DNA of 64,000 bases. Origin: Squalus acanthias (Eukaryota). Of this stretch, positions 1 to 50,990 are shown piece after piece; position 1 is the first letter of the stretch, and the number at the start of each line of letters is the position of its first letter. A program made the position numbers and the translations under genes. The notes beneath the pieces were generated by a model. That model had not been told where the DNA came from. It made no database searches and worked only from the letters and a program-made list of their open reading frames with translations. The stretch is from assembly GCA_030390025.1 (NCBI GenBank), contig CM059445.1, positions 20,522,001-20,586,000 of the forward strand, written 5' to 3'.

Positions 1-2676
1 AGGGAATATCCAGAGTCACTAACACTCCCTTATGATCAGGGAATATCCAGAGTCACTAAACACTCCCTTATGAACAGGAATATCCAGAGTCACTAACACT
101 CCCTATGATCAGCAATATCCAGAGTCACTAACACTCCCTTATGATCAGCAATATCCAGAGTCACTAACACTCCCTTATGATCAGGAATATCCAGAGTCAC
201 TAACACTCCATTTGATCAGGGAATATCCAGAGTCACTAACACTCCCTTATGATCAGGGAATATCCAGAGTCACTAACACTCCCTTATGATCAGGGAATAT
301 CCAGAGTCACTAACACTCCCTTATGATCAGGAATATCCAGAGTCACTCACACTCCCTTATGATCAGGAATATCCAGAGTCACTAACACTCCCTTATGATC
401 AGGAATATCCAGAGTCACTAACACTCCCTTATGATCAGGAATATCCAGAGTCACTAACACTCCCTTATGATCAGGAATATCCAGAGTCACTAACACTCCC
501 TTATGATCAGGAATATCCAGAGTCACTAACACTCCCTTATGATCAGGGAATAACCAGAGTCACTAACACTCCCTTATGATCAGGAATATCCAGAGTCACT
601 AACACTCCCTTATGATCAGGAATATCCAGAGTCACTAACACTCCCTTATGATCAGGAATATCCAGAGTCACTAACACTCCCTTATGATCAGGGAATATCC
701 AGAGTCACTAACACTCCCTTATGATCAGGAATAGCCAGAGTCACTAACACTCCCTTATGATCAGGAATATCCAGAGTCACTAACACTCCCTTATGATCAG
801 GAATATCCAGAGTCACTAACACTCCCTTATGATCAGGAATATCCAGAGTCACTAACACTCCCTTATGATCAGGAATATCCAGAGTCACTAACACTCCCTT
901 ATGATTAGGAATATCCAGAGTCACTAACACTCCCTTATGATCAGGAATATCCAGAGTCACTAACACTCCCTTATGATCAGGAATATCCAGAGTCACTAAC
1001 ACTCCCTTATGATCAGGAATATCCAGAGTCACTAACACTCCATTATGATCAGGAATATCCAGAGTCACTAACACTCCCTTATGATCAGGAATATCCAGAG
1101 TCACTAACACTCCCTTATGATCAGGGAATATCCAGAGTCACTAACACTCCCTTATGATCAGGAATATCCAGAGTCACTTACACTCCCTTATGATCAGGAA
1201 TATCCGGAGTCACTAACACTCCCTTATGATCAGGAATATCCAGAGTCACTAACACTCCCTTATGATCAGGAATATCCAGAGTCACTAACACTCCCTTATG
1301 ATCAGGAATATCCAGAGTCATTAACACTCCCTTATGATCAGGGAATATCCAGAGTCACTAACACTCCCTTATGATCGGGGAATATCCAGAGTCACAAACA
1401 CTCCTTATGATCAGGAATATCCAGAGTCACTAACACTCCCTTTGATCAGGAATATCCAGAGTCACTACACTCCCTTATGATCAGGAATATCCAGAGTCAC
1501 TAACACTCCCTTATGATCAGGAATATCCAGAGTCACTAACACTCCCTTATGATCAGGAATATCCGGAGTCACTAACACTGCCTTATGATCAGGACTATCC
1601 AGAGTCACTAACACTCCCTTATGATCAGGAATATCCAGAGTCACTAACACTCATTATGATCAGGAATATCCGGAGTCACTAACACTGCCTTATGATCAGA
1701 TATCCAGAGTCACTAACACTCCTTATGATCGGGGAATATCCAGAGTCACTAACACTCCCTTATGATCAGGAATATCCAGAGTCACTAACACTCCCTTATG
1801 ATCAGGGAATATCCAGAGTCACTAACACTCCCTTATGATCAGGGAATATCCAGAGTCACTAACACTCCCTTATGATCGGGGAATATCCAGAGTCACTAAC
1901 ACTCCCTTATGATCAGATAATATCCAGAGTCACTAACACTCCCTTATGATCAGGAATATCCTGAGTCACTAACACTCCCTTATGATCAGGGAATATCGAA
2001 AGTCACTAACACTCCCTTATGATCAGGAATATCCAGAGTCACTAACACTCCCTTATGATCAGATAATATCCAGAGTCACTAACACTCCCTTATGATCAGG
2101 AATATCGAGAGTCACTAACACTCCCTTATGATCAGATAATATCCAGAGTCACTAACACTCCTTTATGATCGGGGAATATCCAGAGTCACTAACACTCCCT
2201 TATGATCAGGGAATATCCAGAGTCACAAACACGCCCTTATGATCAGGAATATCCAGAGTCACTAACACTCCCTTATGATCAGGAATATCCAGAGTCACTA
2301 ACACTCCCTTATGATCAGGAATATCCAGAGTCACTAACACTCCCTTATGATCAGGAATATCCAGAGTCACTAACACTCCCTTATGATCAGGAATATCCAG
2401 AATCACTAACACTCCCTTATGATCAGGGAATATCCAGAGTCACTAACACTCCCTTATGATCAGGGAATATCCAGAGTCACTAACACTCCCTTATGATCAG
2501 GAATATCCAGAGTCACTAACACTCCCTTATGATTGGGGAATATCCGGAGTCACTAACACTCCCTTATGATCCGGGAATATCCAGAGTCTTAACACTCCCT
2601 TATGGTCGGGGAATATCCAGAGTCACTAACACTCCCTTATGATCAGGAATATCCAGAGTCTCTAACACTCCCTTAT

Positions 2677-4289
2677 AGATACATAGATACATAGAAAATA
2701 GGAGCAGGAGTAGGCCATCCGGCCCTTCGAGCCTGCTCCGCCATTTAATGAGATCATGGCTGATCCTCCAATTCAGTATCCCGTCCCCGCCTTCTCTCCG
2801 TAACCCTTAACCCCTTTTGCCTGTAGAAATATATCTAATTCCCTCTTAAATATATTTAATGAGCTGGCGTACACTGCCCTCTGTGGCAATGAGTTCCACA
2901 GGTTCACCACCCTCTGAGTGAAGAAATTCCACCTCATTTCTGTCCTAAATGGTTTAGCCCTTATCCTTAAATTATGTCCTCTAGTTCTGTTCTCACCCGC
3001 CAAGGGAAACATTCCTTCTGCATCTAGTCTGTCTAGACCTGTCAGAATTTTATACACTTCTATGAGGTCCCCTCTCAATCTTCTAAACTCCAGTGTGTAC
3101 ATCCCTAAACTACATAGTCTCTCCTCATAGGTCAATCCCGCCATTCCTGGTATCAGCCTGGTGAATCGCCGCTGCACCCCCTCCATGGCAAGAACATCTT
3201 TCCTCAGATGAGGCGACCAAAACTGTACACAGTACTCGAGGTGTGGTCTCACCAGTGCCCTGTACAGCTGCAGCAAGGTATCCCTGTTCCTGTATTCCAA
3301 CCCTTTTGCTATGAAGGCCAGCATACCGTTTGCCTTCTTGACCGCCTGTTGCACCTGCATGCTCGCCTTCAGTGACTGGTGTACAAGAACACCCAGGTCT
3401 CTCTGTACTTCCCCCTCTCCCAATTTATTGCCATTTAAATAATAATTTGCCCTCCCGTTCCTGCACCCAAGGTGGATAACTTCGCACTTGTCCACATTAT
3501 AGTGCATCTGCCATTTATCCGCCCAATCACCCAGTCTGTCCAAATCGCTCTGGAGCTTCCTGGTCTCCTCCTCTGAGCCCACCCCCCCTCCTAGTTTAGT
3601 GTCGTCTGCAAATTTGGAAATGCTGCATCCGACTCCCTGATCCAGGTCATTAATGTAAATTGTGAACAGCTGGGGACCCAGGACAGATCCCTGTGGTACC
3701 CCACTTGTTACTGCCTGCCATTCAGAAAATGAGCCGTTTATTCCAACTCTCTGTTTTCTATCTGACAGCCAGTTCTCTATCCACGTCAATACTTTCCCCT
3801 TTATCCCATGAGCTTCAATTTTCCCTGCTAATCTTTTATGTGGGACCTTATCGAAGGCCTTTTGGAAGTCCAGGTACACCACATCTACTGGCTCTCCCCC
3901 ATCTATTTTACCAGTTACTCCCTCAAAAAATTCCAATAGATTAGTCAAGCACGATTTACCCTTTGTAAATCCATGTTGACTCTGTCCTATCCTGTCCCCA
4001 TTTGCTAAGTGCTCCGCTATTTCATCCTTAATGATGGACTCCAGCATTTTGCCCACAACTGATGTAAGGCTTACAGGTCTGTAATTACCTGCTTTTTCCC
4101 TACCCCCCTTTTTGAATAGTGGGGTAACGTTAGCTACCCTCCAATCCATGGGCACTGTTCCCGAGTCTAATGAATTCTGAAAAATCATACTTAGTGCATC
4201 CGCTATCTCTAGGGCCACCTCCTTCAGCACCCTAGGATGCATGTTATCAGGCCCTGGGGATTTGTCCGCCTTCAATCCCTTGAGCTTCC
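2677..4289 (-). mobile_element. 5'-truncated CR1-clade LINE (copy 1) with an uninterrupted RT and C-terminal ORF2 and intact 3' UTR/tail
   Basis: ORF 2773-4308(-): KSPGPD, NYRPVSLTS, DFQKAFDKVPH, SGVPQGSVLGP, KFADDTKL, LYRALVRPHLEY, RTRGH; (CATAGATA)n tail at 2677-2697 on +; flanked by a duplicated satellite segment. Confidence 0.95.
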
Positions 4290-7200
4290 TATCCAGAGTC
4301 TCTAACACTCCCCTTATGATCGGGGAATATCCAGAGTCACTAACACTCCCTTATGATGAGGGACTATCCAGAGTCACTAACACTCCCTTATGATCAGGGA
4401 ATATCCAGAGTCACTAACACTCCCTTATGATCAGGAATATCCAGAGTCACTAACACTCCCTTATGATCAGGAATATCCAGAGTCACTAACACTCCCTTAT
4501 GATCAGGAATATCCAGAGTCACTAACACTCCCTTATGATCAGGGAATATCCAGAGTCACTAACACTCCCTTATGATCAGGAATATCCAGAGTCACTAACA
4601 CTCCCTTATGATCAGGAATATCCAGAGTCACTAACACTCCCTTATGATCAGGGAATATCCAGAGTCACTAACACTCCCTTATGATCAGGGAATATCCAGA
4701 GTCACTAACACTCCCTTATGAACAGGGAATATCCAGAGTCACTAACACTCCCTTATGAACAGGGAATATCCAGAGTCACTGACACACCCTTATGAACAGG
4801 GAATATCCAGAGTCACTAACACACCCTTATGATCAGGGAATATCCAGAGTCACTAACACTCCCTTATGAACAGGGAATATCCAGAGTCACTAACACTCCC
4901 TTATGAACAGGGAATATCCAGAGTCACTAACACTCCCTTATGAACAGGGAATATCCAGAGTCACTAACACTCCCTTATGATCAGGGAATATCCAGAGTCA
5001 CTAACACTCCCTTATGAACAGGGAATATCCAGAGTCACTAACACTCCCTTATGATTAGGGTATAACCAGAGTGACTAACACTCCCTTATGATCAGGAATA
5101 TCCAGAGTCACTGACACTCCCTTATGATCAGGAATATCCAGAGTCACTAACACTCCCTTATGAACAGGGAATATCCAGAGTCACTAACACTCCCTTATGA
5201 TCAGGGAATATCCAGAGTCACTAACACTCCCTTATGAACAGTGAATATCCAGAGTCACTAACACTCCCTTATGATCAGCAATATCCAGAGTCACTAACAC
5301 TCCCTTATGATCAGCAATATCCAGAGTCACTAACACTCCCTTATGATCAGGAATATCCAGAGTCACTAACACTCCATTTTGATCAGGGAATATCCAGAGT
5401 CACTAACACTCCCTTATGATCAGGGAATATCCAGAGTCACTAACACTCCCTTATGATCAGGGAATATCCAGAGTCACTAACACTCCCTTATGATCAGGGA
5501 ATATCCAGAGTCACTAACACTCCCTTATGATCAGGAATATCCAGAGTCACTAACACGCCCTTATGATCAGGGATATCCAGAGTCACTGACACTCCCTTAT
5601 GATCAGGAATATCCAGAGTCACTAACACGCCCTTATGATCAGGGAATATCCAGAGTCACTAACACTCCCTTATGATCAGGAATATCCAGAGTCACTAACA
5701 CTCCCTTATGATCAGGAATATCCAGAGTCACTCACACTCCCTTCTGATCAGGAATATCCAGAGTCACTCACACTCCCTTATGATCAGGAATATCCAGAGT
5801 CACTAACACTCCCTTATGATCAGGAATATCCAGAGTCACTAACACTCCCTTATGATCAGGAATATCCAGAGTCACTAACACTCCCTTATGATCAGGAATA
5901 TCCAGAGTCACTAACACTCCCTTATGATCAGGAATATCCAGAGTCACTAACACTCCCTTATGATCAGGGAATAACCAGAGTCACTAACACTCCCTTATGA
6001 TCAGGAATATCCAGAGTCACTAACACTCCCTTATGATCAGGAATATCCAGAGTCACTAACACTCCCTTATGATCAGGAATATCCAGAGTCACTAACACTC
6101 CCTTATGATCAGGGAATATCCAGAGTCACTAACACTCCCTTATGATCAGGGAATATCCAGAGTCACTAACACTCCCTTATGATCAGGGAATATCCAGAGT
6201 CACTAACACTCCCTTATGATCAGGAATATCCAGAGTCACTAACACTCCCTTATGATCAGGAATATCCAGAGTCACTAACACTCCCTTATGATCAGGAATA
6301 TCCAGAGTCACTAACACTCCCTTATGATAGGAATATCCAGAGTCACTACACTCCCTTATGATCAGGAATATCCAGAGTCACTAACACTCCCTTATGATCA
6401 GGAATATCCAGAGTCACTAACACTCCCTTATGATCAGGAATATCCAGAGTCACTAACACTCCCTTATGATCAGGAATATCCAGAGTCACTAACACTCCCT
6501 TATGATCAGGAATATCCAGAGTCACTCACACTCCCTTATGATCAGGGAATATCCAGAGTCACTAACACTCCCTTATGATCAGGAATATCCAGAGTCACTT
6601 ACACTCCCTTATGATCAGGAATATCCGGAGTCACTAACACTCCCTTATGATCAGGAATATCCAGAGTCACTAACACTCCCTTATGATCAGGGAATATCCA
6701 GAGTCACTACACTCCCTTATGATCAGGAATATCCAGAGTCACTAACACTCCCTTATGATCAGGAATATCCAGAGTCACTAACACTCCCTTATGATCGGGG
6801 AATATCCAGAGTCACTAACACTCCCTTATGATCAGGGAATATCCAGAGTCACTAACACTCCCTTATGATCAGGAATATCCAGAGTCACTAACACTCCCTT
6901 ATGATCAGGAATATCCAGAGTCACTAACACTCCCTTATGATCAGGAATATCCAGAGTCACTAACACTCCCTTATGATCAGGAATATCCGGAGTCACTAAC
7001 ACTGCCTTATGATCAGGGACTATCCAGAGTCACTAACACTCCCTTATGATCAGGGAATATCCAGAGTCACTAACACTCATTATGATCAGGAATATCCGGA
7101 GTCACTAACACTGCCTTATGATCAGGAATATCCAGAGTCACTAACACTCCCTTATGATCGGGGAATATCCAGAGTCACTAACACTCCCTTATGATCAGGA

Positions 7201-8105
7201 ATATCCAGAGTCACTAACACTCCCTTATGATCAGGGAATATCCAGAGTCACTAACACTCCCTTATGATCAGGGAATATCCAGAGTCACTAACACTCCCTT
7301 ATGATCGGGGAATATCCAGAGTCACTAACACTCCCTTATGATCAGATAATATCCAGAGTCACTAACACTCCCTTATGATCAGGAATATCCTGAGTCACTA
7401 ACACTCCCTTATGATCAGGGAATATCGAAAGTCACTAACACTCCCTTATGATCAGGAATATCCAGAGTCACTAACACTCCCTTATGATCAGATAATATCC
7501 AGAGTCACTAACACTCCCTTATGATCAGGAATATCGAGAGTCACTAACACTCCCTTATGATCAGATAATATCCAGAGTCACTAACACTCCTTTATGATCG
7601 GGGAATATCCAGAGTCACTAACACTCCCTTATGATCAGGGAATATCCAGAGTCACAAACACGCCCTTATGATCAGGAATATCCAGAGTCACTAACACTCC
7701 CTTATGATCAGGAATATCCAGAGTCACTAACACTCCCTTATGATCAGGAATATCCAGAGTCACTAACACTCCCTTATGATCAGGAATATCCAGAGTCATT
7801 GACACTCCCTTATGATCAGGAATATCCAGAATCACTAACACTCCCTTATGATCAGGGAATATCCAGAGTCACTAACACTCCCTTATGATCAGGGAATATC
7901 CAGAGTCACTAACACTCCCTTATGATCAGGAATATCCAGAGTCACTAACACTCCCTTATGATTGGGGATATCCGGAGTCACTAACACTCCCTTATGATCC
8001 GGGAATATCCAGAGTCTTAAACACTCCCTTATGGTCGGGGAATATCCAGAGTCACTAACACTCCCTTATGATCAGGAATATCCAGAGTCTCTAACACTCC
8101 CTTAT

Positions 8106-9718
8106 AGATACATAGATACATAGAAAATAGGAGCAGGAGTAGGCCATCCGGCCCTTCGAGCCTGCTCCGCCATTTAATGAGATCATGGCTGATCCTCCAA
8201 TTCAGTATCCCGTCCCCGCCTTCTCTCCGTAACCCTTAACCCCTTTTGCCTGTAGAAATATATCTAATTCCCTCTTAAATATATTTAATGAGCTGGCGTA
8301 CACTGCCCTCTGTGGCAATGAGTTCCACAGGTTCACCACCCTCTGAGTGAAGAAATTCCACCTCATCTCTGTCCTAAATGGTTTAGCCCTTATCCTTAAA
8401 TTATGTCCTCTAGTTCTGTTCTCACCCGCCAAGGGAAACATTCCTTCTGCATCTAGTCTGTCTAGACATGTCAGAATTTTATACACTTCTATGAGGTCCC
8501 CTCTCAATCTTCTAAACTCCAGTGTGTACATCCCTAAACTACATAGTCTCTCCTCATAGGTCAATCCCGCCATTCCTGGTATCAGCCTGGTGAATCGCCG
8601 CTGCACCCCCTCCATGGCAAGAACATCTTTCCTCAGATGAGGCGACCAAAACTGTACACAGTACTCGAGGTGTGGTCTCACCAGTGCCCTGTACAGCTGC
8701 AGCAAGGTATCCCTGTTCCTGTATTCCAACCCTTTTGCTATGAAGGCCAGCATACCGTTTGCCTTCTTGACCGCCTGTTGCACCTGCATGCTCGCCTTCA
8801 GTGACTGGTGTACAAGAACACCCAGGTCTCTCTGTACTTCCCCCTCTCCCAATTTATTGCCATTTAAATAATAATTTGCCCTCCCGTTCCTGCACCCAAG
8901 GTGGATAACTACGCACTTGTCCACATTATAGTGCATCTGCCATTTATCCGCCCAATCACCCAGTCTGTCCAAATCGCTCTGGAGCTTCCTGGTCTCCTCC
9001 TCTGAGCCCACCCCCCCTCCTAGTTTAGTGTCGTCTGCAAATTTGGAAATGCTGCATCCGACTCCCTGATCCAGGTCATTAATGTAAATTGTGAACAGCT
9101 GGGGACCCAGGACAGATCCCTGTGGTACCCCACTTGTTACTGCCTGCCATCAGAAAATGAGCCGTTTATTCCAACTCTCTGTTTCTATCTGACAGCCAGT
9201 TCTCTATCCACGTCAATACTTTCCCCTTTATCCCATGAGCTTCAATTTTCCCTGCTAATCTTTTATGTGGGACCTTATCGAAGGCCTTTTGGAAGTCCAG
9301 GTACACCACATCTACTGGCTCTCCCCCATCTATTTTACCAGTTACTCCCTCAAAAAATTCCAATAGATTAGTCAAGCACGATTTACCCTTTGTAAATCCA
9401 TGTTGACTCTGTCCTATCCTGTCCCCATTTGCTAAGTGCTCCGCTATTTCATCCTTAATGATGGACTCCAGCATTTTGCCCACAACTGATGTAAGGCTTA
9501 CAGGTCTGTAATTACCTGCTTTTTCCCTCCCCCCCTTTTTGAATAGTTGGGGTAACGTTAGCTACCCTCCAATCCATGGGCACTGTTCCCGAGTCTAATG
9601 AATTCTGAAAAATCATACTTAGTGCATCCGCTATCTCTAGGGCCACCTCCTTCAGCACCCTAGGATGCATGTTATCAGGCCCTGGGGATTTGTCCGCCTT
9701 CAATCCCTTGAGCTTCCT
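8106..9718 (-). mobile_element. CR1-clade LINE (copy 2), near-identical to copy 1, frameshifted by several 1-bp indels
   Basis: Same truncation point, tail and flanks as 2677-4289, offset 5429 bp; ORF broken into 8202-9011, 9166-9483 and 9512-9703. Confidence 0.95.
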
Positions 9719-12700
9719 TATCCAGAGTCTCTAACACTCCCTTATGATCGGGGAATATCCAGAGTCACTAACACTCCCTTATGATGAGGGACTATCCAGA
9801 GTCACTAACACTCCCTTATGATCAGGGAATATCCAGAGTCACTAACACTCCCTTATGATCAGGAATATCCAGAGTCACTAACACTCCTTATGATCAGGAA
9901 TATCCAGAGTCACTAACACTCCCTCATGATCAGGAATATCCAGAGTCACTAACACTCCCTTATGATCAGGAATATCCAGAGTCACTAACACTCCCTTATG
10001 ATCAGAATATCCAGAGTCACGAACACTCCCTTATGATCAGGAATATCCAGAGTCACTAACACTCCCTTATGATCAGGAATATCCAGAGTCACTAAACACT
10101 CCCTTATGATCAGAAAATCCAGAGTCACTAACACTCCCTTATGATCAGGAATATCCAGAGTCACTAACACTCCCTTATGATCAGGAATATCCAGAGTCAC
10201 TAACACTCCCTTATGATCAGGAATATCCAGAGTCACTAACACTCCCTTATGATCAGGAATATCCAGAGTCACTAACACTCCCTTATGATCAGGAATATCC
10301 AGAGTCACTAACACTCCCTTATGATCAGGAATATCCAAGAGTCACTAACACTCCCTTATGATCAGGAATATCCAGAGTCACTACACTCCCTGATGATCAG
10401 GAATATCCAGAGTCACTAACACTCCCTTATGATCAGGAATATCCAGAGTCACTAACACTCCCTTATGATCAGGAATATCCAGAGTCACTAACACTCCCTT
10501 ATGATCAGGAATATCCAGAGTCACTAACACTCCCCTTATGATCAGGAATATCCAGAGTCCACTAACACTCCCTTATGATCAGGAATATCCAGAGTCACTA
10601 ACACTCCCTTATGATCCGGGATATCCAAGTCACTAACACTCCCTTATGATCAGGAATATCCAGAGTCACTAACACTCCCTTATGATCAGGAATATCCAGA
10701 GTCACTAACCACTCCCTTATGATCAGAATATCCAGAGTCACTAACACTCCCTTATGATCGGGAATATCCAGAGTCACTAACACTCCCTTATGATCAGGAA
10801 TATCCAGAGTCACTAACACTCCCTTATGAACAGGAATATCCAGAGTCACTAACACTCCCTTATGATCAGGAATATCCAGAGTCAGTAACACTCCCTTATG
10901 ATCAGGAATATCCGGAGTCACTAACACTCCCTTATGATCAGGGAATATCCAGAGTCACTAACACTCCCTTATGATCAGGAATATCCAGAGTCACTAACAC
11001 TCCCTTATGATCAGGAATATCCAGAGTCACTAACACTCCCTTATGATCAGGAATATCCAGAGTCACTAACACTCCCTTATGATCAGGAATATCCAGAGTC
11101 ACTAACACTCCCTGATGATCAGGAATATCCAGAGTCACTAACACTCCCTTATGATCAGGAATATCCAGAGTCACTAACGCTCCCTTATGATCAGGAATAT
11201 CCAGAGTCACTAACACTCCCTTATGATCAGGGAATATCCAGAGTCACTAACACTCCCTTATGATCGGGGAATATCCAGAGTCACTAACACTCCCTTATGA
11301 TCGGGGAATATCCAGAGTCACTAACACTCCCTTATGATCAGGAATATCCAGAGACACTAACACTCCCTTTTGATCAGGAATATCCAGAGTCACTAACACT
11401 CCCTTAAGATCAGGAATATCCAGAGTCACTAACACTCCCTTATGATCAGGGAATATCCAGAGTCACTAACACTCCCTTATGATCAGGAATATCCAGAGTC
11501 ACTAACACTCCCTTATGATCAGGAATAAAGAGACACTAACACTCCCTTATGATCAGGAATATCCAGAGTCACTAACTCTCCCTTATGATCAGGGAATATT
11601 GAGAGTCACTAACACTCCCTTATGATCAGGGAATATCGAGAGTCACTAACACTCTCTTATGATCAGGAATATCCAGAGTCACTAACACTCCTTATGATCA
11701 GGAATATCCAGAGTCACTAACACTCCCTTATGATCAGGGAATATCCAGAGTCACCAACACTCCCTTATGATCGGGGAATATCCAGAGTCACTAACACTCG
11801 CTTATGATCAGGAATATCCAGAGTCACTAACACTCCCTTATGATCAGGAACATCCAGAGTCACTAACACTCCCTTATGATCAGGAACATCCAGAGTCACT
11901 AACACTCCCTTATAATCAAGGAATATCCAGAGTCACTAACACTCCCTTATGATCAGGAACATCCAGAGTCACTAACACTCCCATATGATCAGGAATATCC
12001 AGAGTCAGTAAACTCCCCTTATGATCAGGAACATCCAGAGTCACTAACAAACTCCCTTATGATCAGGAATATCCAGAGTCACGAACACTCCCTTATGATC
12101 AGGAACATCCAGAGTCACTCACACTCCCTTATGATCAGGAATATCCAGAGTCACTAACACTCCCTTATGATCAGGAACATCCAGAGTCACTAACACTCCC
12201 TTATGATCAGGAATATCCAGAGTCACTAACACTCCCTTATGATCAGGAACATCCAGAGTCACTAACACTCCCTTATGATCAGGAATATCCAGAGTCACTA
12301 ACACTCCCTTATGATCAGGGAATATCCAGAGTCACTAACACTCCCTTATGATCAGGAATATCCAGAGTCAATAAAACTTTCATTGTGTTCAGGAATATCC
12401 AGAGTCACTAACACTCCCTTATGATCAGGGAATATCCAGAGTCACTAACACTCCCTTATGATCAGGAATATCCAGAGTCACTAACACTCTCTTATGATCA
12501 GGAATATCCAGAGTCACTTACACTCCCTTATGATCAGGAATATCCAGAGTCACTAACACTCTCTTATGATCAGGAATATCCAGAGTCACTAACACTCCCT
12601 TATGATCAGGGAATATCCAGAGTCACTAAAACTCCCTTATGATCAGGAATATCCAGAGTCACTAACACTCCCTTATGATCAGGGAATATCCAGAGTCACT

Positions 12701-30700: not shown

Positions 30701-33700
30701 GTCACTAACACTCCCTTATGATCAGGAATATCCAGAGTCACTAACACTCCCTTATGATCAGGAATATCCAGAGTCACTAACACTCCCTTATGATCAGGAA
30801 TATCCAGAGTCACTAACACTCCCTTATGATCAGGAATATCCAGAGTCACTAACACTCCCTTATGATCAGGAATATCCAGAGTCACTAACACTCCCTTATG
30901 ATCAGGAATATCCAGAGTCACTAACACTCCCTTATGATCAGGAATATCCAGAGTCACTAACACTCCCTTATGATCAGGAATATCCAGAGTCACTAACACT
31001 CCCTTATGATCAGGAATATCCAGAGTCACTAACACTCCCTTATGATCAGGAATATCCAGAGTCACTAACACTCCCTTATGATCAGGAATATCCAGAGTCA
31101 CTAACACTCCCTTATGATCAGGAATATCCAGAGTCACTAACACTCCCTTATGATCAGGAATATCCAGAGTCACTAACACTCCCTTATGATCAGGAATATC
31201 CAGAGTCACTAACACTCCCTTATGATCAGGAATATCCAGAGTCACTAACACTCCCTTATGATCAGGAATATCCAGAGTCACTAACACTCCCTTATGATCA
31301 GGGAATATCCAGAGTCACTAACACTCCCTTATGATCAGGGAATATCCAGAGTCACTAACACTCCCTTATGATCAGGAATATCCAGAGTCACTAACACTCC
31401 CTTATGATCAGGAATATCCAGAGTCACTAACACTCCCTTATGATCAGGAATATCCAGAGTCACTAACACTCCCTTATGATCAGGAATATCCAGAGTCACT
31501 AACACTCCCTTATGATCAGGAATATCCAGAGTCACTAACACTCCCTTATGATCAGGAATATCCAGAGTCACTAACACTCCCTTATGATCAGGAATATCCA
31601 GAGTCACTAACACTCCCTTATGATCAGGAATATCCAGAGTCACTAACACTCCCTTATGATCAGGAATATCCAGAGTCACTAACACTCCCTTATGATCAGG
31701 AATATCCAGAGTCACTAACACTCCCTTATGATCAGGAATATCCAGAGTCACTAACACTCCCTTATGATCAGGAATATCCAGAGTCACTAACACTCCCTTA
31801 TGATCAGGAATATCCAGAGTCACTAACACTCCCTTATGATCAGGAATATCCAGAGTCACTAACACTCCCTTATGATCAGGAATATCCAGAGTCACTAACA
31901 CTCCCTTATGATCAGGAATATCCAGAGTCACTAACACTCCCTTATGATCAGGAATATCCAGAGTCACTAACACTCCCTTATGATCAGGAATATCCAGAGT
32001 CACTAACACTCCCTTATGATCAGGAATATCCAGAGTCACTAACACTCCCTTATGATCAGGAATATCCAGAGTCACTAACACTCCCTTATGATCAGGAATA
32101 TCCAGAGTCACTAACACTCCCTTATGATCAGGAATATCCAGAGTCACTAACACTCCCTTATGATCAGGAATATCCAGAGTCACTAACACTCCCTTATGAT
32201 CAGGAATATCCAGAGTCACTAACACTCCCTTATGATCAGGAATATCCAGAGTCACTAACACTCCCTTATGATCAGGAATATCCAGAGTCACTAACACTCC
32301 CTTATGATCAGGAATATCCAGAGTCACTAACACTCCCTTATGATCAGGAATATCCAGAGTCACTAACACTCCCTTATGATCAGGAATATCCAGAGTCACT
32401 AACACTCCCTTATGATCAGGAATATCCAGAGTCACTAACACTCCCTTATGATCAGGAATATCCAGAGTCACTAACACTCCCTTATGATCAGGAATATCCA
32501 GAGTCACTAACACTCCCTTATGATCAGGAATATCCAGAGTCACTAACACTCCCTTATGATCAGGAATATCCAGAGTCACTAACACTCCCTTATGATCAGG
32601 AATATCCAGAGTCACTAACACTCCCTTATGATCAGGAATATCCAGAGTCACTAACACTCCCTTATGATCAGGAATATCCAGAGTCACTAACACTCCCTTA
32701 TGATCAGGAATATCCAGAGTCACTAACACTCCCTTATGATCAGGAATATCCAGAGTCACTAACACTCCCTTATGATCAGGAATATCCAGAGTCACTAACA
32801 CTCCCTTATGATCAGGAATATCCAGAGTCACTAACACTCCCTTATGATCAGGAATATCCAGAGTCACTAACACTCCCTTATGATCAGGAATATCCAGAGT
32901 CACTAACACTCCCTTATGATCAGGAATATCCAGAGTCACTAACACTCCCTTATGATCAGGAATATCCAGAGTCACTAACACTCCCTTATGATCAGGAATA
33001 TCCAGAGTCACTAACACTCCCTTATGATCAGGAATATCCAGAGTCACTAACACTCCCTTATGATCAGGAATATCCAGAGTCACTAACACTCCCTTATGAT
33101 CAGGGAATATCCAGAGTCACTAACACTCCCTTATGATCAGGAATATCCAGAGTCACTAACACTCCCTTATGATCAGGAATATCCAGAGTCACTAACACTC
33201 CCTTATGATCAGGAATATCCAGAGTCACTAACACTCCCTTATGATCAGGAATATCCAGAGTCACTAACACTCCCTTATGATCAGGAATATCCAGAGTCAC
33301 TAACACTCCCTTATGATCAGGAATATCCAGAGTCACTAACACTCCCTTATGATCAGGAATATCCAGAGTCACTAACACTCCCTTATGATCAGGAATATCC
33401 AGAGTCACTAACACTCCCTTATGATCAGGAATATCCAGAGTCACTAACACTCCCTTATGATCAGGAATATCCAGAGTCACTAACACTCCCTTATGATCAG
33501 GAATATCCAGAGTCACTAACACTCCCTTATGATCAGGAATATCCAGAGTCACTAACACTCCCTTATGATCAGGAATATCCAGAGTCACTAACACTCCCTT
33601 ATGATCAGGAATATCCAGAGTCACTAACACTCCCTTATGATCAGGAATATCCAGAGTCACTAACACTCCCTTATGATCAGGAATATCCAGAGTCACTAAC

Positions 33701-36700
33701 ACTCCCTTATGATCAGGAATATCCAGAGTCACTAACACTCCCTTATGATCAGGAATATCCAGAGTCACTAACACTCCCTTATGATCAGGAATATCCAGAG
33801 TCACTAACACTCCCTTATGATCAGGAATATCCAGAGTCACTAACACTCCCTTATGATCAGGAATATCCAGAGTCACTAACACTCCCTTATGATCAGGAAT
33901 ATCCAGAGTCACTAACACTCCCTTATGATCAGGAATATCCAGAGTCACTAACACTCCCTTATGATCAGGAATATCCAGAGTCACTAACACTCCCTTATGA
34001 TCAGGAATATCCAGAGTCACTAACACTCCCTTATGATCAGGAATATCCAGAGTCACTAACACTCCCTTATGATCAGGAATATCCAGAGTCACTAACACTC
34101 CCTTATGATCAGGAATATCCAGAGTCACTAACACTCCCTTATGATCAGGAATATCCAGAGTCACTAACACTCCCTTATGATCAGGAATATCCAGAGTCAC
34201 TAACACTCCCTTATGATCAGGAATATCCAGAGTCACTAACACTCCCTTATGATCAGGAATATCCAGAGTCACTAACACTCCCTTATGATCAGGAATATCC
34301 AGAGTCACTAACACTCCCTTATGATCAGGAATATCCAGAGTCACTAACACTCCCTTATGATCAGGAATATCCAGAGTCACTAACACTCCCTTATGATCAG
34401 GAATATCCAGAGTCACTAACACTCCCTTATGATCAGGAATATCCAGAGTCACTAACACTCCCTTATGATCAGGAATATCCAGAGTCACTAACACTCCCTT
34501 ATGATCAGGAATATCCAGAGTCACTAACACTCCCTTATGATCAGGAATATCCAGAGTCACTAACACTCCCTTATGATCAGGAATATCCAGAGTCACTAAC
34601 ACTCCCTTATGATCAGGAATATCCAGAGTCACTAACACTCCCTTATGATCAGGAATATCCAGAGTCACTAACACTCCCTTATGATCAGGAATATCCAGAG
34701 TCACTAACACTCCCTTATGATCAGGAATATCCAGAGTCACTAACACTCCCTTATGATCAGGAATATCCAGAGTCACTAACACTCCCTTATGATCAGGAAT
34801 ATCCAGAGTCACTAACACTCCCTTATGATCAGGAATATCCAGAGTCACTAACACTCCCTTATGATCAGGAATATCCAGAGTCACTAACACTCCCTTATGA
34901 TCAGGAATATCCAGAGTCACTAACACTCCCTTATGATCAGGAATATCCAGAGTCACTAACACTCCCTTATGATCAGGAATATCCAGAGTCACTAACACTC
35001 CCTTATGATCAGGAATATCCAGAGTCACTAACACTCCCTTATGATCAGGAATATCCAGAGTCACTAACACTCCCTTATGATCAGGAATATCCAGAGTCAC
35101 TAACACTCCCTTATGATCAGGAATATCCAGAGTCACTAGCACTCCCCTTATGATCAGGGAATATCCAGAGTCACTAACACTCCCTTATGATCAGGGAATA
35201 TCCAGAGTCACTAACACTCCCTTATGATCAGGAATATCCAGAGTCACTAACACTCCCTTATGATCAGGAATATCCAGAGTCACTAACACTCCCTTATGAT
35301 CGGGGAATATCCAGAGTCACTAACACTCCCTTATGATCAGGGAATATCCAGAGTCACTAACACTCCCTTATGATCAGGGATATCCAGAGTGACTAACACT
35401 CCCTTATCATCAGGGAATATCCAGAGTCACTAACACTCCCTTATGATCAGGGATATCCAGAGTGACTAACACACCCTTATGATCGGGGAATATCCAGAGT
35501 CACTAACACTCCCTTATGATCAGGGAATATCCAGAGTCACAAACACTCCCTTATGATCAGGAATATCCAGAGTCACTAACACTCCCTTATGATCAGGAAT
35601 ATCCAGAGTCACTAACACTCCCTTATGATCAGGAATATCCAGAGTCACTAACACTCCCTTATGATCAGGGAATATCCAGAGTCACTAACACTCCCTTATG
35701 ATCAGGAATATCCAGAGTCACTAACACTCCCTTATGATCAGGGAATATCCAGAGTCACTAACACTCCCTTATGATCAGGAATATCCAGAGTCACTAACAC
35801 TCCCTTATGATCAGGAATATCCAGAGTCACTAACACTCCCTTATGATCAGGAATATCCAGAGTCACTAACACTCCCTTATGATCAGGAATATCCAGAGTC
35901 ACTAACACTCCCTTATGATCAGGAATATCCAGAGTCACTAACACTCCCTTATGATCAGGAATATCCAGAGTCACTCACACTCCCTTATGATCAGGAATAT
36001 CCAGAGTCACTAACACTCCCTTATGATCAGGGAATATCCAGAGTCACTAACACTCCCTTATGATCAGGAATATCCAGAGTGACTAACACTCCCTTATGAT
36101 CGGGGAATATCCGGAGTCACTAACACTCCCTTATGATCGGGGAATATCCGGAGTCACTAACACTCCCTTATGATCAGGGAATATCCAGAGTCACTAACAC
36201 TCCCTTATGATCGGGGAATATCCAGAGTCACTAACACTCCCTTATGATCAGGAATATCCAGAGTCTCTAACACTCCCTAATGATCGGGGAATATCCAGAG
36301 TCTCTAACACTCCCTTATGATCAGGGAATATCCAGAGTCACTAACACTCCCTTATGATCAGTGAATATCCAGAGTCACCAACACTCCTTTTGATCAGGAA
36401 TATCCAGTCACTAACACTCCCTTATGATCAGGAATATCCAGAGTCACTAACACTCCCTTATGATCAGGAATATCCAGAGTCACTAACACTCCCTTATGAT
36501 CAGGAATATCCAGAGTCACTAACACTCCCTTATGATCAGGAATATCCAGAGTCACTAACACTCCCTTATGATCAGGAGTATCCGGAGTCACTAACAGTCC
36601 CTTATGATCAGGGAATATCCACAGTCACTAACACTCCCTTATGATCAGGAATATCCAGAGTCACTAACACTCCCTTATGATCAGGAATATCCAGAGTCAC

Positions 36701-39700
36701 TAACACTCCCTTATGATCAGGAATATCCAGAGTCACTAACACTCCCTTATGATCAGGGAATATCCAGAGTCACTAACACTCCCTTCTGATCAGGAATATC
36801 CAGAGTCACTAACACTCCCTTATGATCAGTGAATATCCAGAGTCACGAACACTCCCTTATGATCAGGAATATCCAGAGTCACTAACACTCCCTTATGATC
36901 AGGAATATCCAGAGTCACTAACACTCCCTTATGATCAGGAATATCCAGAGTCACTAACACTCCCTTATGATCAGGAATATCCAGAGTCACTAACACTCCC
37001 TTATGATCAGGAATATCCAGAGTCACTAACACTCCCTTCTGATCAGGAATATCCAGAGTCACTAACACTCCCTTATGATCAGGAATATCCGGAGTCACTA
37101 ACACTCCCTTATGATCAGGAATATCCAGAGTCACTAACACTCCCTTATGATCAGGAATATCCAGAGTCACTAACACTCCCTTATGATCAGGGAATATCCA
37201 GAGTCACTAACACTCCCTTATGATCAGGAATATCCAGAGTCACTAACACTCCCTTCTGATCAGGAATATCCAGAGTCACTAACACTCCCTTATGATCGGG
37301 GAATATCCAGAGTCACTACCAGTCCCTTATGATCAGGGAATATCCAGAGTCACTAACACTCCTTATGATCAGGAATATCCAGAGTCACTAACACTCCCTT
37401 ATGATCAGGAATATCCAGAGTCACTAACACTCCCTTATGATCAGGAATATCCAGAGTCACTAACACTCCCTTATGATCAGGGAATATCCAGAGTCACTAA
37501 CACTCCCTTATGATCAGGAATATCCAGAGTCACTAACACTCCCTTATGATCAGGAATATCCAGAGTCACTAACACTCCCTTATGATCAGGGAATATCCAG
37601 AGTCACTAACACTCCCTTATGATCAGGAATATCCAGAGTCACTAACACTCCCTTATGATCAGGGAATATCCAGAGTCACTAACACTCCCTTATGATCAGG
37701 AATATCCAGAGTCACTAACACTCCCTTATGATCAGGGAATATCCAGAGTCACTAACACTCCCTTATGATCAGGGAATATCCAGAGTCACTAACACTCCCT
37801 TATGATCAGGAATATCCAGAGTCACTCACACTCCCTTATGATCAGGAATATCCAGAGTCACTAACACTCCCTTATGATCAGGAATATCCAGAGTCACTAA
37901 CACTCCCTTATGATCAGGAATATCCAGAGTCACTAACACTCCCTTATGATCAGGAATATCCAGAGTCACTAACACTCCCTTATGATCAGGAATATCCAGA
38001 GTCACTAACACTCCCTTATGATCAGGAATATCCAGAGTCACTAACACTCCCTTATGATCAGGAATATCCAGAGTGACTAACACTCCCTTATGATCGGGAA
38101 TATCCGGAGTCACTAACACTCCCTTATGATCAGGAATATCCAGAGTCACTAACACTCCCTTATGATCAGGAATATCCAGAGTCACTAACACTCCCTTATG
38201 ATCGGGGAATATCCGGAGTCACTAACTCTCCCTTATGATCAGGGAATATCCAGAGTCACTAACACTCCCTTATGATCGGGAATATCCAGAGTCACTAACA
38301 CTCCCTTATGATCAGGAATATCCAGAGTCACTAACACTCCCTTATGATCGGGAATATCCAGAGTCACTAACACTCCCTTATGATCAGGAATATCCAGAGT
38401 CACTAACACTCCCTTATGATCAGGAATATCCAGAGTCACTAACACTCCCTTATGATCAGGGAATATCCAGAGTCACTAACACTCCCTTATGATCAGGAAT
38501 ATCCAGAGTCACTAACACTCCCTTATGATCAGGAATATCCAGAGTCACTAACACTCCCTTATGATCAGGGAATATCCAGAGTCACTAACACTCCCTTATG
38601 ATCAGGAATATCCAGAGTCACTAACACTCCCTTTTGATCAGGAATATCCAGAGACACTAACACTCCCTTATGATCAGGGAATATCCAGAGTCACTAACAC
38701 TCTCTTATGATCAGGAATATCCAGAGTCACTAACACTCCCTTATGATCAGGAATATCCAGAGTCACTAACACTCCCTTATGATCAGGAATATCCAGAGTC
38801 ACTAACACTCCCTTATGATCAGGGAATATCGAGAGTCACTAACACTCCCTTATGATCAGGAATATCCAGGGTCACTAACACTCCCTTATGGTCAGGAATA
38901 TCCAGAGTCACTAACACTCCCTTATGATCAGGAATATCCAGAGTCACTAACACTCCCTTATGATCAGGAATATCCAGAGTCACTAACACTCCTTATGATC
39001 AGGAATATCCAGGGTCACTAACACTCCCTTATGATCAGGGAACATCCAGAGTCACTAACACTCCCTTATGATCAGGAATATCCAGAGTCACTAACACTCC
39101 CTTATGATCAGGAATATCCAGAGTCACTAACACTCCCTTATGATCAGGAATATCCAGAGTCACTAACACTCCCTTATGATCAGGAACATCCAGAGTCACT
39201 AACACTCCCTTATGATCAGGAATATCCAGAGTCACGAACATTCCCTTATGATCAGGAATATCCAGAGTCACTAACACTCCCTTATGATCAGGAATATCCA
39301 GAGTCACTAACACTCCCTTATGATCAGGAATATCCAGAGTCACTAACAGTCCCTTATGATCAGGAATATCCAGAGTCACTAACACTCCCTTATGATCAGG
39401 AATATCCAGAGTCACTAACACTCCCTTATGATCAGGAATATCCAGAGTCACTAACACTCCCTTATGATCAGGAATATCCAGAGTCACTAACACTCCCTTA
39501 TGATCAGGGAACATCCAGAGTCACTAACACTCCCTTATGATCAGGGAATATCCAGAGTCAGTAACATTCCCTTATGATCAGGAATATCCAGAGTCACTAA
39601 CACTCCCTTATGATCAGGGAATATCCAGAGTCACTAACACTCCCTTATGATCAGGAATATCCAGAGTCACTAACACTCCCTTATGATCAGGGAATATCCA

Positions 39701-41662
39701 GAGTCACTAACACTCCCTTATGATCAGGAATATCCAGAGTCACTAACACTCCCTTATGATCAGGGAATATCCAGAGTCACTAACACTCCCTTATGATCAG
39801 GAATATCCAGAGTCACTAACACTCCCTTATGATCAGGAATATCCAGAGTCACTAACACTCCCTTATGATCAGGGAATATCCAGAGTCACTAACACTCCCT
39901 TATGATCAGGGAATATCCAGAGTCACTAACACTCCCTTATGATCAGGAATATCCAGAGTCACTAAAACTCCCTTATGATCGGGGAATATCCAGAGTCACT
40001 AACACTCCCTTATGATCAGGAATATCCAGAGTCACTAAAACTCCCTTATGATCAGGAATATCCAGAGTCACTAAAACTCCCTTATGATCGGGAATATCCA
40101 GAGTCACTAACACTCCCTTATGATCAGGAATATCCAGAGTCACTAACACTCCCTTATGATCGGGGAATATCCAGAGTCACTAACACTCCCTTATTATCAG
40201 GAATATCCAGAGTCACTAACACTCCCTTATGATCAGGAATATCCAGAGTCACTAACACTCCCTTATGATCAGGGAATATCCAGAGTCACTAACACTCCCT
40301 TATGATCAGGAATATCCAGAGTCACTAACACTCCCTTATGATCAGGGAATATCCAGAGTCACTAACACACCTTATGATCAGGGAATATCCAGAGTCAGTA
40401 ACATTCCCTTATGATCAGGAATATCCAGAGTCACTAACACTCCCTTATGATCAGGGAATATCCAGAGTCACTAACACTCCCTTATGATCAGGAATATCCA
40501 GAGTCACTAACACTCCCTTATGATCAGGGAATATCCAGAGTCACTAACACTCCCTTATGATCAGGAATATCCAGAGTCACTAACACTCCCTTATGATCAG
40601 GGAATATCCAGAGTCACTAACACTCCCTTATGATCAGGAATATCCAGAGTCACTAACACTCCCTTATGATCAGGAATATCCAGAGTCACTAACACTCCCT
40701 TATGATCAGGGAATATCCAGAGTCACTAACACTCCCTTATGATCGGGGAATATCCAGAGTCACTAACACTCCCTTATGATCAGGAATATCCAGAGTCACT
40801 AAAACTCCCTTATGATCGGGGAATATCCAGAGTCACTAACACTCCCTTATGATCAGGAATATCCAGAGTCACTAAAACTCCCTTATGATCAGGAATATCC
40901 AGAGTCACTAAAACTCCCTTATGATCGGGGAATATCCAGAGTCACTAACACTCCCTTATGATCAGGAATATCCAGAGTCACTAACACTCCCTTATGATCG
41001 GGGAATATCCAGAGTCACTAACACTCCCTTATTATCAGGAATATCCAGAGTCACTAACACTCCCTTATGATCAGGAATATCCAGAGTCACTAACACTCCC
41101 TTATGATCGGGGAATATCCAGAGTCACTAACACTCCCTTATTATCAGGAATATCCAGAGTCACTAACACTCCCTTATGATCAGGAATATCCAGAGTCACT
41201 AACACACCTTTATGATCAGGGAATATCCAGAGTCACTAACACTCCCTTATGATCAGGAATATCCAGAGTCACTAACACTCCCTTATGATCGGGGAATATC
41301 CAGAGTCACTAACACTCCCTTATGATCAGGAATATCCAGAGTCACTAACACTCCCTTATGATCAGGGAATATCCAGAGTCACTAACACTACCTTTTGATC
41401 GGGGAATATCCAGAGTCACTAACACTCCCTTATGATCAGGAATATCCAGAGTCGCTAACACTCCCTTTTGATCAGGAATATCCAGAGTCACTAACACTGA
41501 CTTATGATCGGGGAATACTTATGCCATAAATTCATAATTTGTCACTCAACTGGAGGGATTTTATTATTTAAGTGATGTAAATCTGACACGCTGCAATTTT
41601 GATAATCATGAACTATCAGAGTCCGACCTGATCGTAATGCCCCCAAGATGCAGAATCCTTAC

Positions 41663-41956
41663 CGTACACCGCAATGGAAACACTATAAATCTTTGGTGGA
41701 ACTGATGGATATTCCTCAAAGTCTGCTGTGCAGACGAATTCCATCAATCCAGTCTCTTGTGGTGCCCATGCTGTTGTTGCCGAGACAGTATTGGAATTTT
41801 GTCCCGTTCTTACTGAATCCAGTTCTTCACCATCCTGAGACCATCTTACTCTCATCTTCTCAGCAGGATAGACGTTTGGGACCTCACATGTTAACGTGAC
41901 CTCTTGCTTCACTTCTGTGGGGCCTTGGTCAAGGATTCTCGGAGTATCTGGAAAAG
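41663..41956 (-). CDS. ICAM/VCAM-like adhesion protein, exon 4 (Ig domain 3); the gene presumably continues beyond the left edge of the window
   Basis: Acceptor ttcttgtgtgcgttgcAG, donor G|GTAAGG, 294 nt, phase 1-1. Encodes (S)FPDTPRIL..VTLTCEVPNVYPAEKMRVRW..EFVCTADF..SIAVY, with the Ig C-W-C pattern and an ICAM-type YSFP junction. Confidence 0.9.
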
Positions 41957-42634
41957 CTGCAACGCACACAAGAAATTCATTTCATTTTGATTTGCTGTGC
42001 TGTGTTTCAGTTACTCATGGACAGAGCGGAAAACAGACCAGTACTGCTATTGCCCAATTCACACATCGCAGGAGTCCATCACACCAGCCCACTGTGAGAC
42101 AACTGGAGCCATCACCAGGAGGTCACATACTTTATTTTTGAAATTAATTCAGGCAGCCCAAGTATCTAACTCTGCTTCTTTTGCTCCAGCCACTAGGAGT
42201 GGAACAGGCTGATGCACTCACTCATTTACCTACACTGTCATCTTTACTTGCATCTGCCTACAACATCCCAGTTGAGGCTGAGACTTCAGTGTGGGTGATT
42301 ATGGGTGTAAATCTTTCAAGTTATTTTGTTCTCCCTAGAACTGCATCGAGAGAATGGCTGATCTGCTCCTTGACCACCACCTCTACTGACCATAAGAGGT
42401 GTGCAAGAGCTGCCAGGTGAGTTTCCTTCAGACATGCCCGTCACTGTTTGGAAGTATCTGGCTGTCATCTGGCAAAAGCAGCAGAGTGGTGATAATAAAT
42501 TCAATATGTGGGCCATCCTGGACATAAACACACTTTGCACCAATTTGTTTGTTGCACGAGAGCAATCTACTGGAGTCTATAATTAAGGATAGAGTGACTG
42601 AACACCTTGAAAATTGTCAGCTGATCAGAGAGAG

Positions 42635-46137: not shown

Positions 46138-46452
46138 AGTAAGTTTGCAGAGTCACCGAGGAGTTTGTGATTGGTTTTGTGGCGTTAGAGCCCAAGTCCA
46201 CTTCTGCCAAGCAGGTGTAATCCTTTCCGTCATCTGACATACTTGCAGTGAAATTGAAGACATTCCTCAATCTTTGATCATCATCCGGGAAACCTGGTTC
46301 GTCTGTGGAAACACTCTGAACAATCTCACTCCCTCTCAGCCATGTGAGTATGAGCTTATTGTTTGGATAGACCCTCGGACCAGTGCACTCCAGACTATAT
46401 GTTTTGTTAACTTCCAGCACTTCAGGAGGTGAAGTAATGTTTAACTCTCGAT
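46138..46452 (-). CDS. ICAM/VCAM-like adhesion protein, exon 3 (Ig domain 2)
   Basis: Acceptor cctcctttaacAG, donor T|GTAAGT, 315 nt, phase 1-1. Encodes (N)RELNITSPPEVLEVNKTYSLECTGPRVYP..LILTWLRGSE..DDGKDYTCLAEVDL..VTLQTY, a typical ICAM/VCAM D2. Confidence 0.92.
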
Positions 46453-50714: not shown

Positions 50715-50990
50715 TGTATACTATGACCACCTTTTTCTCCTCCTTCAGCTGTTTACTGTCTGATAAACAGGTTACACTGCAAGGTGCTGCAAAATCCCAT
50801 TCCTGGACACTCGCGAAATAGTCTGTGGACCAGTTAGTACCATGTGTTTTGTTCGGATGTATCCCTGGTTTATATTCCACAGCTATTGTTGAATTTGCAC
50901 ATGTTGTACGGCACATCACCTCCAGAGAGTCTCCAAATTCCACAGCTGAGGGGTTTGTGTCGATCCAAACCTCAAATCCAGTCACGTTTG
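50715..50990 (-). CDS. ICAM/VCAM-like adhesion protein, exon 2 (N-terminal Ig domain 1, ICAM_N type)
   Basis: Acceptor tttctttccctggcAG, donor A|GTAAGT, 276 nt, phase 1-1. FEVWIDTNPSAVEFGDSLEVMCRTTC..WDFAAPCSVTC..VVIVY has the two CxxxC motifs of ICAM/VCAM/MAdCAM D1. Confidence 0.93.

Follow-up and report, generated by a model that had tools for sequence, protein, structure and literature searches.

How does a vertebrate immune gene come to carry an intron made up largely of satellite DNA, and what does such an array do to the gene? The question is raised by a 64,000-nucleotide stretch of the shark Squalus acanthias (G000:C22:20522001-20586000; hereafter the window), in which a gene on the minus strand, here called gene A, holds a 36-bp tandem repeat in its fourth intron. 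An earlier note on this DNA had described an inducible immune adhesion gene with a satellite-filled intron of more than 41 kb, had likened it to the giant introns of Drosophila Y fertility genes, and had proposed that array length could set the delay or level of induction. To follow this up, flanking DNA was examined for 290 kb leftward and 100 kb rightward of the window. We consider it probable that intron 4 was filled by a minisatellite private to a single gene cluster. This minisatellite likely grew in one of two paralogues through repeated rounds of unequal exchange; splicing likely removes it, and it is likely tolerated without being under selection.

The eight exons of gene A were joined by script into a stop-free frame of 676 amino acids, and all introns have AG/GT borders and lie in phase 1. 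With lengths of 2717, 4262, 4181, 99662, 3703, 2792 and 2182 bp in order, intron 4 is 23 times as long as the next-longest intron, and the gene spans 121.5 kb as assembled. The earlier description of the part inside the window was accurate: exon 4 ends in phase 1 at a canonical donor, the satellite begins 145 bp past this donor at 41517 and runs off the left window end, the more than 1,000 monomers claimed amount to about 1,059 in the window, a read-through stop (TGA) lies at 41616-41618, and no transmembrane exon is present in the window. The missing immunoglobulin (Ig), transmembrane and cytoplasmic exons, for which the note had advised looking to the left, were found there at a distance of 58-68 kb. 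Judged by eye, the frame has the layout of a type I membrane protein, with a hydrophobic N-terminus and a hydrophobic segment of approximately 24 residues near the C-terminus. Exon 2 scores 24.6 bits against Pfam ICAM_N (cut-off 21) and exon 4 scores 34.5 bits against ICAM1_3_5_D2 (cut-off 27.5), which, along with the PDB matches, bears out the assignment to the ICAM-type immune adhesion genes. Exon 1 is 75% identical to the N-terminus of the shark ICAM-like protein P0021 over 28 aligned positions. Of 142 candidates searched with exon 3, 72 proteins matched, with identities of up to 87%; those bearing a species name all come from sharks, rays or chimaeras, and the exon-4 tree places gene A with Pristiophorus and Heptranchias proteins. 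By these features, gene A is an intact shark ICAM-like gene with ICAM1/3/4/5-type traits; the sequences carry the assignment as far as the class ICAM-like, short of one-to-one orthology to a mammalian ICAM.

The intron of more than 41 kb is real, but its size had been underestimated: as scaffolded, intron 4 covers G000:C22:20464001-20563662 (99,662 bp), with an assembly gap in it. Within the window, Tandem Repeats Finder reports a single 36-bp array at 3-41517 with a score of 67,340, and a reversed control pattern had no match genome-wide compared to 1,691 for the real unit; the array is therefore not a product of chance. In its whole extent (C22:20464954-20563517), it comprises 78.5 kb of monomers, or approximately 2,170 copies of a 36/37-bp unit with a GC content of 42%. 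Besides the monomers, it carries six copies of long interspersed nuclear elements (LINEs), which were multiplied with it. The term satellite-filled is thus justified for the array as such but not as a pure fill, as two 1,613-bp LINE fragments in the window had been missed. Similarly, the centromere-scale homogeneity that had been claimed applies to a core at approximately 12.8-35.1 kb, in which 610 of 619 units are exact, whereas elsewhere only 35-54% are (171 of 484 in the stretch between gap and core). This core may be a recent sweep or a consensus artefact. A coding role of the monomer was rejected, since two open frames out of six are unremarkable at a length of 12 codons.

All 1,691 exact matches of the unit in the genome lie inside the ICAM cluster and on one strand. 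When up to 3 mismatches in 30 were allowed, all 2,073 matches again fell into the cluster, 2,037 of them in gene A and 36 in a second gene, which speaks against a centromeric or genome-wide satellite family. Where the unit came from was asked in two ways. Against the rest of the 454-kb cluster DNA, exons included, its best match reached 24.3 bits, within the shuffle range of 20.3-28.2, so no exon-derived source was seen in the non-array DNA of the cluster. No LINE source was seen either, with matches of only 8 nt to the inserted LINEs among those printed; elsewhere in the genome the unit had no match at up to 3 mismatches in 30, a limit at which an old, diverged source is possible.

The second gene carries the main argument. 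Genomic copies of exon 4 number only two, and the other one, 98.6% identical and 141 kb to the left, belongs to a paralogue, gene B. Genes A and B have near-identical exons 3-5, and the unit occupies one and the same intron position in both. The flanking DNA is shared, at 97-99% towards exon 5, and so is the junction; the seed of the array therefore predates their last duplication or conversion. The copy number is 39 in B compared to about 2,170 in A, and this 55-fold difference must consequently have arisen since. Intron 4 of B measures 8,477 bp, which makes it 12-fold shorter than that of A (8.5 vs 99.7 kb). That B is a false duplicate of A was ruled out by the first domains (64% identical), an extra Ig exon and a different tail in B. 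A single long gene running from A into B was also discarded, because gene A ends in a stop of its own and gene B has a separate candidate signal exon with separate promoter motifs.

The LINEs record how the array would have grown. To the left of the window, a 4.3-kb element with an esterase ORF1 and an endonuclease-reverse transcriptase ORF2 (ORF, open reading frame) occurs four times, its last copy cut by the gap, and in the window there are two copies of the 5'-truncated 1,613-bp element, the second of which was likely made by tandem duplication. The copies of each LINE have common junctions and are 99.6-99.95% alike in the main blocks; each LINE was therefore inserted once and then multiplied together with the monomers around it, the blocks measuring 10-14 kb and 5.43 kb. 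Such block-wise multiplication would be the signature of unequal exchange. In the one 4.3-kb copy examined (C22:20487864-20492140), ORF1 (320 amino acids, esterase) and ORF2 (1,004 amino acids) are both open; the 4.3-kb copies are antisense to gene A.

Whether the intron is removed was addressed with four of the 21 listed sequencing runs, which were compared with positions 41440-42100 only: X2, a DNA run of sample S2 from organism A, and X6, X7 and X8, which are transcript-like. The latter three were taken as RNA on account of their spliced contig ends, no run being recorded as RNA. At 41663, contigs from X7 and X8 break off, and their loose letters continue as the start of exon 5; at 41956, contigs from X8 and X6 break off in the same way into the end of exon 3. 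Contig X7-14 (600 nt) has the window letter at all four sites that distinguish A from B, and its match to the genome ends exactly at 41663, where exon-5 sequence follows; this is the junction that the earlier note had proposed to look for. Monomer-like contigs at 41440-41509 turn up in each of the three transcript-like runs and thus also in organism B, which makes the unit common to a second species label; both pre-mRNA and DNA carry-over are possible sources.

Together, these data would fit the following course. The unit was present between the same flanks before the last duplication or conversion of A and B, after which unequal crossing-over or conversion probably raised the array of A to approximately 2,170 copies in recent times, while B stands at 39. 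RNA polymerase II (Pol II) would cross the array and the intron would then be removed, as the A-type contig joined to exon 5 suggests. The array would be tolerated because splice sites and exons are untouched. Pol II proceeds at 1-3.5 kb per minute, at which the 99.7-kb crossing would take approximately 28-100 min compared to 2-8 min for B. This lag is likely a by-product, and the data give no basis for selection on it. The expansion may be driven by a general readiness of this chromosome to build up local arrays, a trait that its homologue among the avian dot chromosomes also shows.

This last step was examined by sampling C22 (65.5 Mb) outside the cluster with twenty 10-kb samples in 3-Mb steps, and the four largest chromosomes, C1-C4, with twenty samples. 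Tandem repeats make up 21% on average on C22 and 2% on C1-C4, and arrays of at least 1 kb were present in seven of 20 samples and in none of 20, respectively (Fisher p 0.008; Mann-Whitney p 0.027). Three of the C22 samples consist wholly of array, each with a different unit. Two further C22 units were traced: a 32-mer has 242 matches, all forward and the first 100 at one place, and a 28-mer has 994 forward and 726 reverse matches and is probably not one array. Of the seven array-bearing samples, six lie in the first 30 Mb, where tandem arrays crowd, and the samples at 38-56 Mb look macrochromosome-like; possibly, C22 arose when a repeat-rich microchromosome homologue fused with another piece. 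As for the link to birds, the first exon of CDC37 lies at 19.63 Mb on C22, 0.9 Mb from gene A. The chicken block ICAM5-ZGLP1-FDX2-RAVER1-TYK2-CDC37 is placed on chromosome 30 (10.64898/2026.07.26.740788), described elsewhere as a dot chromosome (PMC9974502). The ICAM-CDC37 linkage matches this block and would make the shark locus its homologue. The second marker, the Ribosomal_L4 family (for MRPL4), had no match on C22 and was met only on C12 and C23. Taken together, the shared flanks, the copy-number contrast, the LINE blocks, the X7 contig and the array richness of C22 favour a neutral expansion.

Several points weigh against this explanation. A-type exon 4 is spliced to exon 5 in only one of the three transcript-like runs, as X8 and X6 have the B letter at 41689 and their exon-3 end is of B type as well. 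The assignment of X7 to A comes down in effect to this one site, because A letters also occur at the other three in the B-flank contig of X2, the exon-4 copies of any one shark species have been homogenised across its paralogues, and the 30 loose letters displayed are the same for both genes and thus cannot tell the exon 5 of one from that of the other. The 200-N gap inside the intron is not spanned by sequence and leaves the true length uncertain, and the tree of the tails does not resolve the A clade. The next-largest array among the cluster introns measures 3.4 kb, so that the background rate alone is insufficient, and the neutrality of the array is inferred from its context.

The gap also opens the most serious alternative, namely that the assembly is distorted: the array would be real but much shorter, with an over-extended or homogenised consensus as its core, or the gap would join the halves of two paralogues. 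In favour of this, the stretch from gap to core shows 0.29 odd indels per unit, whereas the core has 0.002 and the exon-4 edge 0.035, a pattern typical of a thin long-read tail. In the X2 run, the consensus monomer contig has a depth of 5,950 and the exon-4 contig one of 17.6, a ratio of 338 (depth being no copy number), while the assembly holds 1,373 copies of the X2 monomer words, or 763 without the core; the comparison halves if the exon-4 contig merges A and B. X2 shows only a B-type flank contig, but contigs drop variants, so A may be present there as well. The depth indicates a large array in another sample and hints, weakly, at a shorter array there or an over-assembled core. The length polymorphism that the earlier note expected is hence weakly backed, by the 55-fold difference between paralogues and this one depth hint from a second DNA sample. 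However, even without the core, variant-rich, LINE-marked sequence still accounts for approximately 49 kb towards exon 5 and 28 kb towards exon 4. The two halves run in the same orientation and bear different LINE markers with no apparent overlap, and neither a third exon 4 nor an unplaced array was found in the assembly. Furthermore, real arrays are expected to have homogeneous cores and variant edges, which is the purity pattern seen here. Five shark models of the 72 homologues (P0021, P0005, P0020, P0016 and P0064) score clearly higher against the tail of A than against that of B, and four of these automated models also have an A-like first domain, which supports the scaffold join across the gap. 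We therefore regard a distorted assembly as unlikely, although of all alternatives it keeps the most weight.

The remaining alternatives give the array an effect. In the most far-reaching one, giant dot-chromosome stuttering on the linkage group of chicken chromosome 30 would have produced a length-polymorphic 100-kb array of Rel sites that delays one of two kappaB/GAS-driven sisters (GAS, gamma-activated site) or shifts the balance of membrane and secreted forms, and thereby tunes leukocyte adhesion; we hold this to be improbable. Similarly improbable is that the array hampers gene A, in that Pol II stalls or transcripts end early, at an AATAAA 98 nt past the donor or in the LINEs, leaving a secreted three-domain form or little product while B does the job. 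An in-frame read-through of 14 codons to a stop, followed by AATAAA, does exist in both A and B, two of the three transcript-like runs are of B type, and intron 4 holds 16 AATAAA on the sense strand. However, this AATAAA does not exceed chance (0.12 of shuffles) and another follows the donor of exon 3, gene A has kept every downstream exon intact, and the A-type X7 contig is spliced to exon 5. In the three transcript-like runs no contig covers 41532-41646, where a read-through transcript ending at 41616 would lie; such missing cover counts for neither side.

Under neutral expansion, the lag is a side effect; the earlier note saw in the array a possible regulator, and a selected timer or rheostat, by which array length delays or lowers induced A mRNA relative to B, would build on the promoters. 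Both genes match the kappaB consensus and carry a GAS-like site, each at most 225 bp from the ATG. The description of gene A as inducible is plausible by these motifs, and they would equally make cytokine inducibility a plausible property. The interval 54121-60375 holds a 5.4-kb G-rich array with a 21-bp unit and then an array with a 19-bp unit, starting 344 bp upstream of the ATG of gene A and approximately 150 bp beyond the kappaB motif; with the GC skew near +1, a G-quadruplex-prone strand is possible there. The 12-fold difference in intron-4 length would suit a timer, passages of one source discuss intron delay for genes of 10-80 kb (PMC11207136), and human variable number tandem repeat (VNTR) length associates with expression at many loci according to parts of another (10.1101/2020.12.16.423078). 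On the other hand, the expansion is recent and private, the sister gene stands at 39 copies despite its similar promoter, unrelated large arrays abound on the chromosome, and the X2 depth hint suggests a shorter array in another sample. The proposed function in delay or level is thus not supported, and we rate a selected timer as improbable, marginally more so than a hampered gene A. Least convincing of all, and very improbable, is a sink or clustered enhancer formed by approximately 2,000 Rel-homodimer-type sites, one per monomer, in an NF-kappaB-type target: 2,065 sense-strand matches to NGGRN(A/T)TTCC exist (a consensus quoted in a passage of PMC2193138), only 0.3% of shuffled monomers have one, and the monomer site is one base off the human ICAM-1 kappaB site as given in part of PMC3320982, but the match was found post hoc with a single motif family tested without correction, the monomer fails the classical GGGRNWYYCC consensus, and among the titles and abstract starts returned by a literature search with the 10-mer and NF-kappaB none presents it as a kappaB site.

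Gene A belongs to a cluster of at least six tandem ICAM-like units in 454 kb. Across C22:20232001-20616445, these units have shuffled domain sets and near-identical common exons, and gene B shares one Ig exon, at 100% identity, with a paralogue at 20.27 Mb; the likeness of the exons would point to frequent gene conversion. Exon-4 sequences cluster by species across sharks, which speaks for repeated homogenisation within the ICAM cluster. Most introns of the cluster have short arrays or none. In three paralogues, a partial second first-domain exon lies approximately 350 bp downstream of that exon. The membrane-proximal Ig exon of gene A is present twice, 3.08 kb apart and with one amino-acid difference (C22:20455785-20460975); the surrounding 2.1-kb block is 98% alike, as a real exon duplication or an assembly duplicate. 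In intron 2, at approximately 49456-50500, two similar direct repeats of about 130 bp with TG...CA ends, seen by eye, surround some 790 bp, and by the same inspection the piece resembles a small non-autonomous long terminal repeat (LTR) element. On the minus strand of 62011-64000, beside N stretches, lies a sequence which we take, by eye, to be like the integrase end of an LTR retrotransposon. For better overview, the coordinates of all features are summarized in Table 1.

Table 1. Coordinates of gene A, its intron 4 and related features (plain numbers are window positions; C22 marks positions on the chromosome).
Feature	Position	Strand	Basis or remark
Exon 1, coding part, signal peptide, 70 nt, phase 1	53708..53777	-	Identity to N-terminus of P0021
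Exon 2, Ig domain 1	50715..50990	-	Pfam ICAM_N
Exon 3, Ig domain 2	46138..46452	-	Best solved relatives ICAM-2, ICAM-5 (PDB)
Exon 4, Ig domain 3, 294 nt, phase 1, donor GT at 41662	41663..41956	-	Pfam ICAM1_3_5_D2
Exon 5	C22:20463713-20464000	-	Left of window
Exons 6 and 7, Ig	C22:20459722-20460009, C22:20456642-20456929	-	Left of window
Exon 8, transmembrane segment and tail	C22:20454248-20454459	-	Left of window
Promoter motifs: kappaB (53964-53974, -197 from ATG) and GAS-like (-162 from ATG)	53931..53974	-	Motif match
Window part of intron 4	1..41662	-	Runs off left window end
Unique start of intron 4, 145 bp	41518..41662	-	Read-through stop TGA 41616-41618; AATAAA 41560-41565
Array edge nearest exon 4, variant-rich, 80/172 units exact	35101..41517	.	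Unit comparison
Near-perfect core, 610/619 units exact, longest exact run 372 units	12801..35100	.	Unit comparison
Array with 5.43-kb higher-order duplication, raised single-base indel noise	1..12800	.	Unit comparison
5'-truncated LINE (RVT_1, 504-aa open frame), 1,613 bp	2677..4289	-	Duplicated monomer variant on both sides
Second copy of the LINE insertion, 1,613 bp	8106..9718	-	99.6% identical, same junctions
200-N scaffold gap inside array	C22:20513229-20513428	.	8.6 kb left of window
Array beyond gap, 48 kb with four copies of 4.3-kb LINE	C22:20464954-20513228	.	Left of window
Paralogue B array, 39 copies of unit	C22:20420945-20422366	.	Same intron position as A
Partial first-domain exon copies	C22:20357150-20357311, 20289560-20289721, 20236514-20236675	.	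Possible exon-stutter-like relic

With two paralogues that have near-identical exons 3-5, similar promoters and a 55-fold array difference, the locus offers a natural side-by-side test of whether a tandem-repeat intron delays or weakens an inducible vertebrate gene, and A and B can be read apart in RNA by single-base differences. Its value lies in this built-in control and in the link to a dot-chromosome homologue; otherwise it is one large array among many on C22. Among the titles and abstract starts of the literature searched, none dealt with this locus or with a shark ICAM intron filled by satellite DNA.

Human ICAM1, ICAM3, ICAM4 and ICAM5 form a cluster at 19p13.2. The shark locus resembles it, along with the chicken cluster on chromosome 30 and automated shark models labelled ICAM-like or VCAM1-like, in the ICAM_N first domain, the ICAM1_3_5_D2 domain, one Ig domain per phase-1 exon, the linkage to CDC37 and a kappaB motif near the start; it differs in being a shark-specific tandem cluster with domains homogenised within species. 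In the passages available, shorter shark chromosomes are richer in simple tandem repeats (PMC10620051), a rise that C22 shows in comparison to C1-C4; those passages give chromosome-level trends and lie beyond single intronic arrays. Whale shark introns are described as long and LINE-rich in part of a further work (10.1101/443036).

The analogy to the Drosophila Y genes is not supported on scale. In the relevant passages of Fingerhut et al. (2024, PMC11207136), the fertility genes exceed 4 Mb and are expressed in a spermatocyte stage of 80-90 h, and several introns of human dystrophin are longer than 100 kb. The mostly tandem-repeat intron, transcribed before the downstream exons, is common to both systems, but gene A with its 121.5 kb is more than 30-fold shorter than those megabase genes. 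Since human dystrophin has introns of this class, size alone requires no special programme, and none would be needed here. Chicken dot-chromosome intron stuttering and human intronic VNTRs are closer precedents. As described in parts of Hron et al. (2026, PMC12954441), avian stuttering likewise involves a local unit of tens of bases, one intron, intact exons, chromosome 30 homology and a length difference between related copies; a locally born intron repeat between intact exons is also what we find. The authors report it from birds and gerbils only, with exon-stutter spans of 0.1-23.6 kb (median 1.75 kb), whereas the shark array covers approximately 99 kb with far more regular units, 42% GC and LINEs inside, and only one of seven introns is hugely expanded. 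The occasional exon-derived unit, an optional feature, is not seen here, and in contrast to a dot chromosome with most introns affected, C22 measures 65.5 Mb and the introns have mostly short arrays or none. Stuttering introns also vary widely in length within a species; on this point the shark data offer the 55-fold difference between paralogues and the depth ratio in X2, which is lower than the count in the assembly but no copy number. The words "shark" and "ICAM" are absent from the text and one supplementary file of that paper; its 115-gene list may include ICAM genes. By analogy, the array would work like stuttering without being shown a member, and the locus suggests that stuttering, so far described almost exclusively from birds, is an ancient trait of this linkage group and extends to approximately 100 kb in sharks. 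The large and expression-associated human VNTRs share the single-locus minisatellite-type unit, the copy-number differences and possible cis effects (passages of Garg et al., 10.1101/2020.12.16.423078), while the shark array falls into the macrosatellite size range and has higher-order blocks with LINEs. The best reading of these comparisons is that intron 4 would represent intronic VNTR expansion, or avian sequence stuttering, in an oversized form that is tolerated, and not a programme of the Drosophila Y type.

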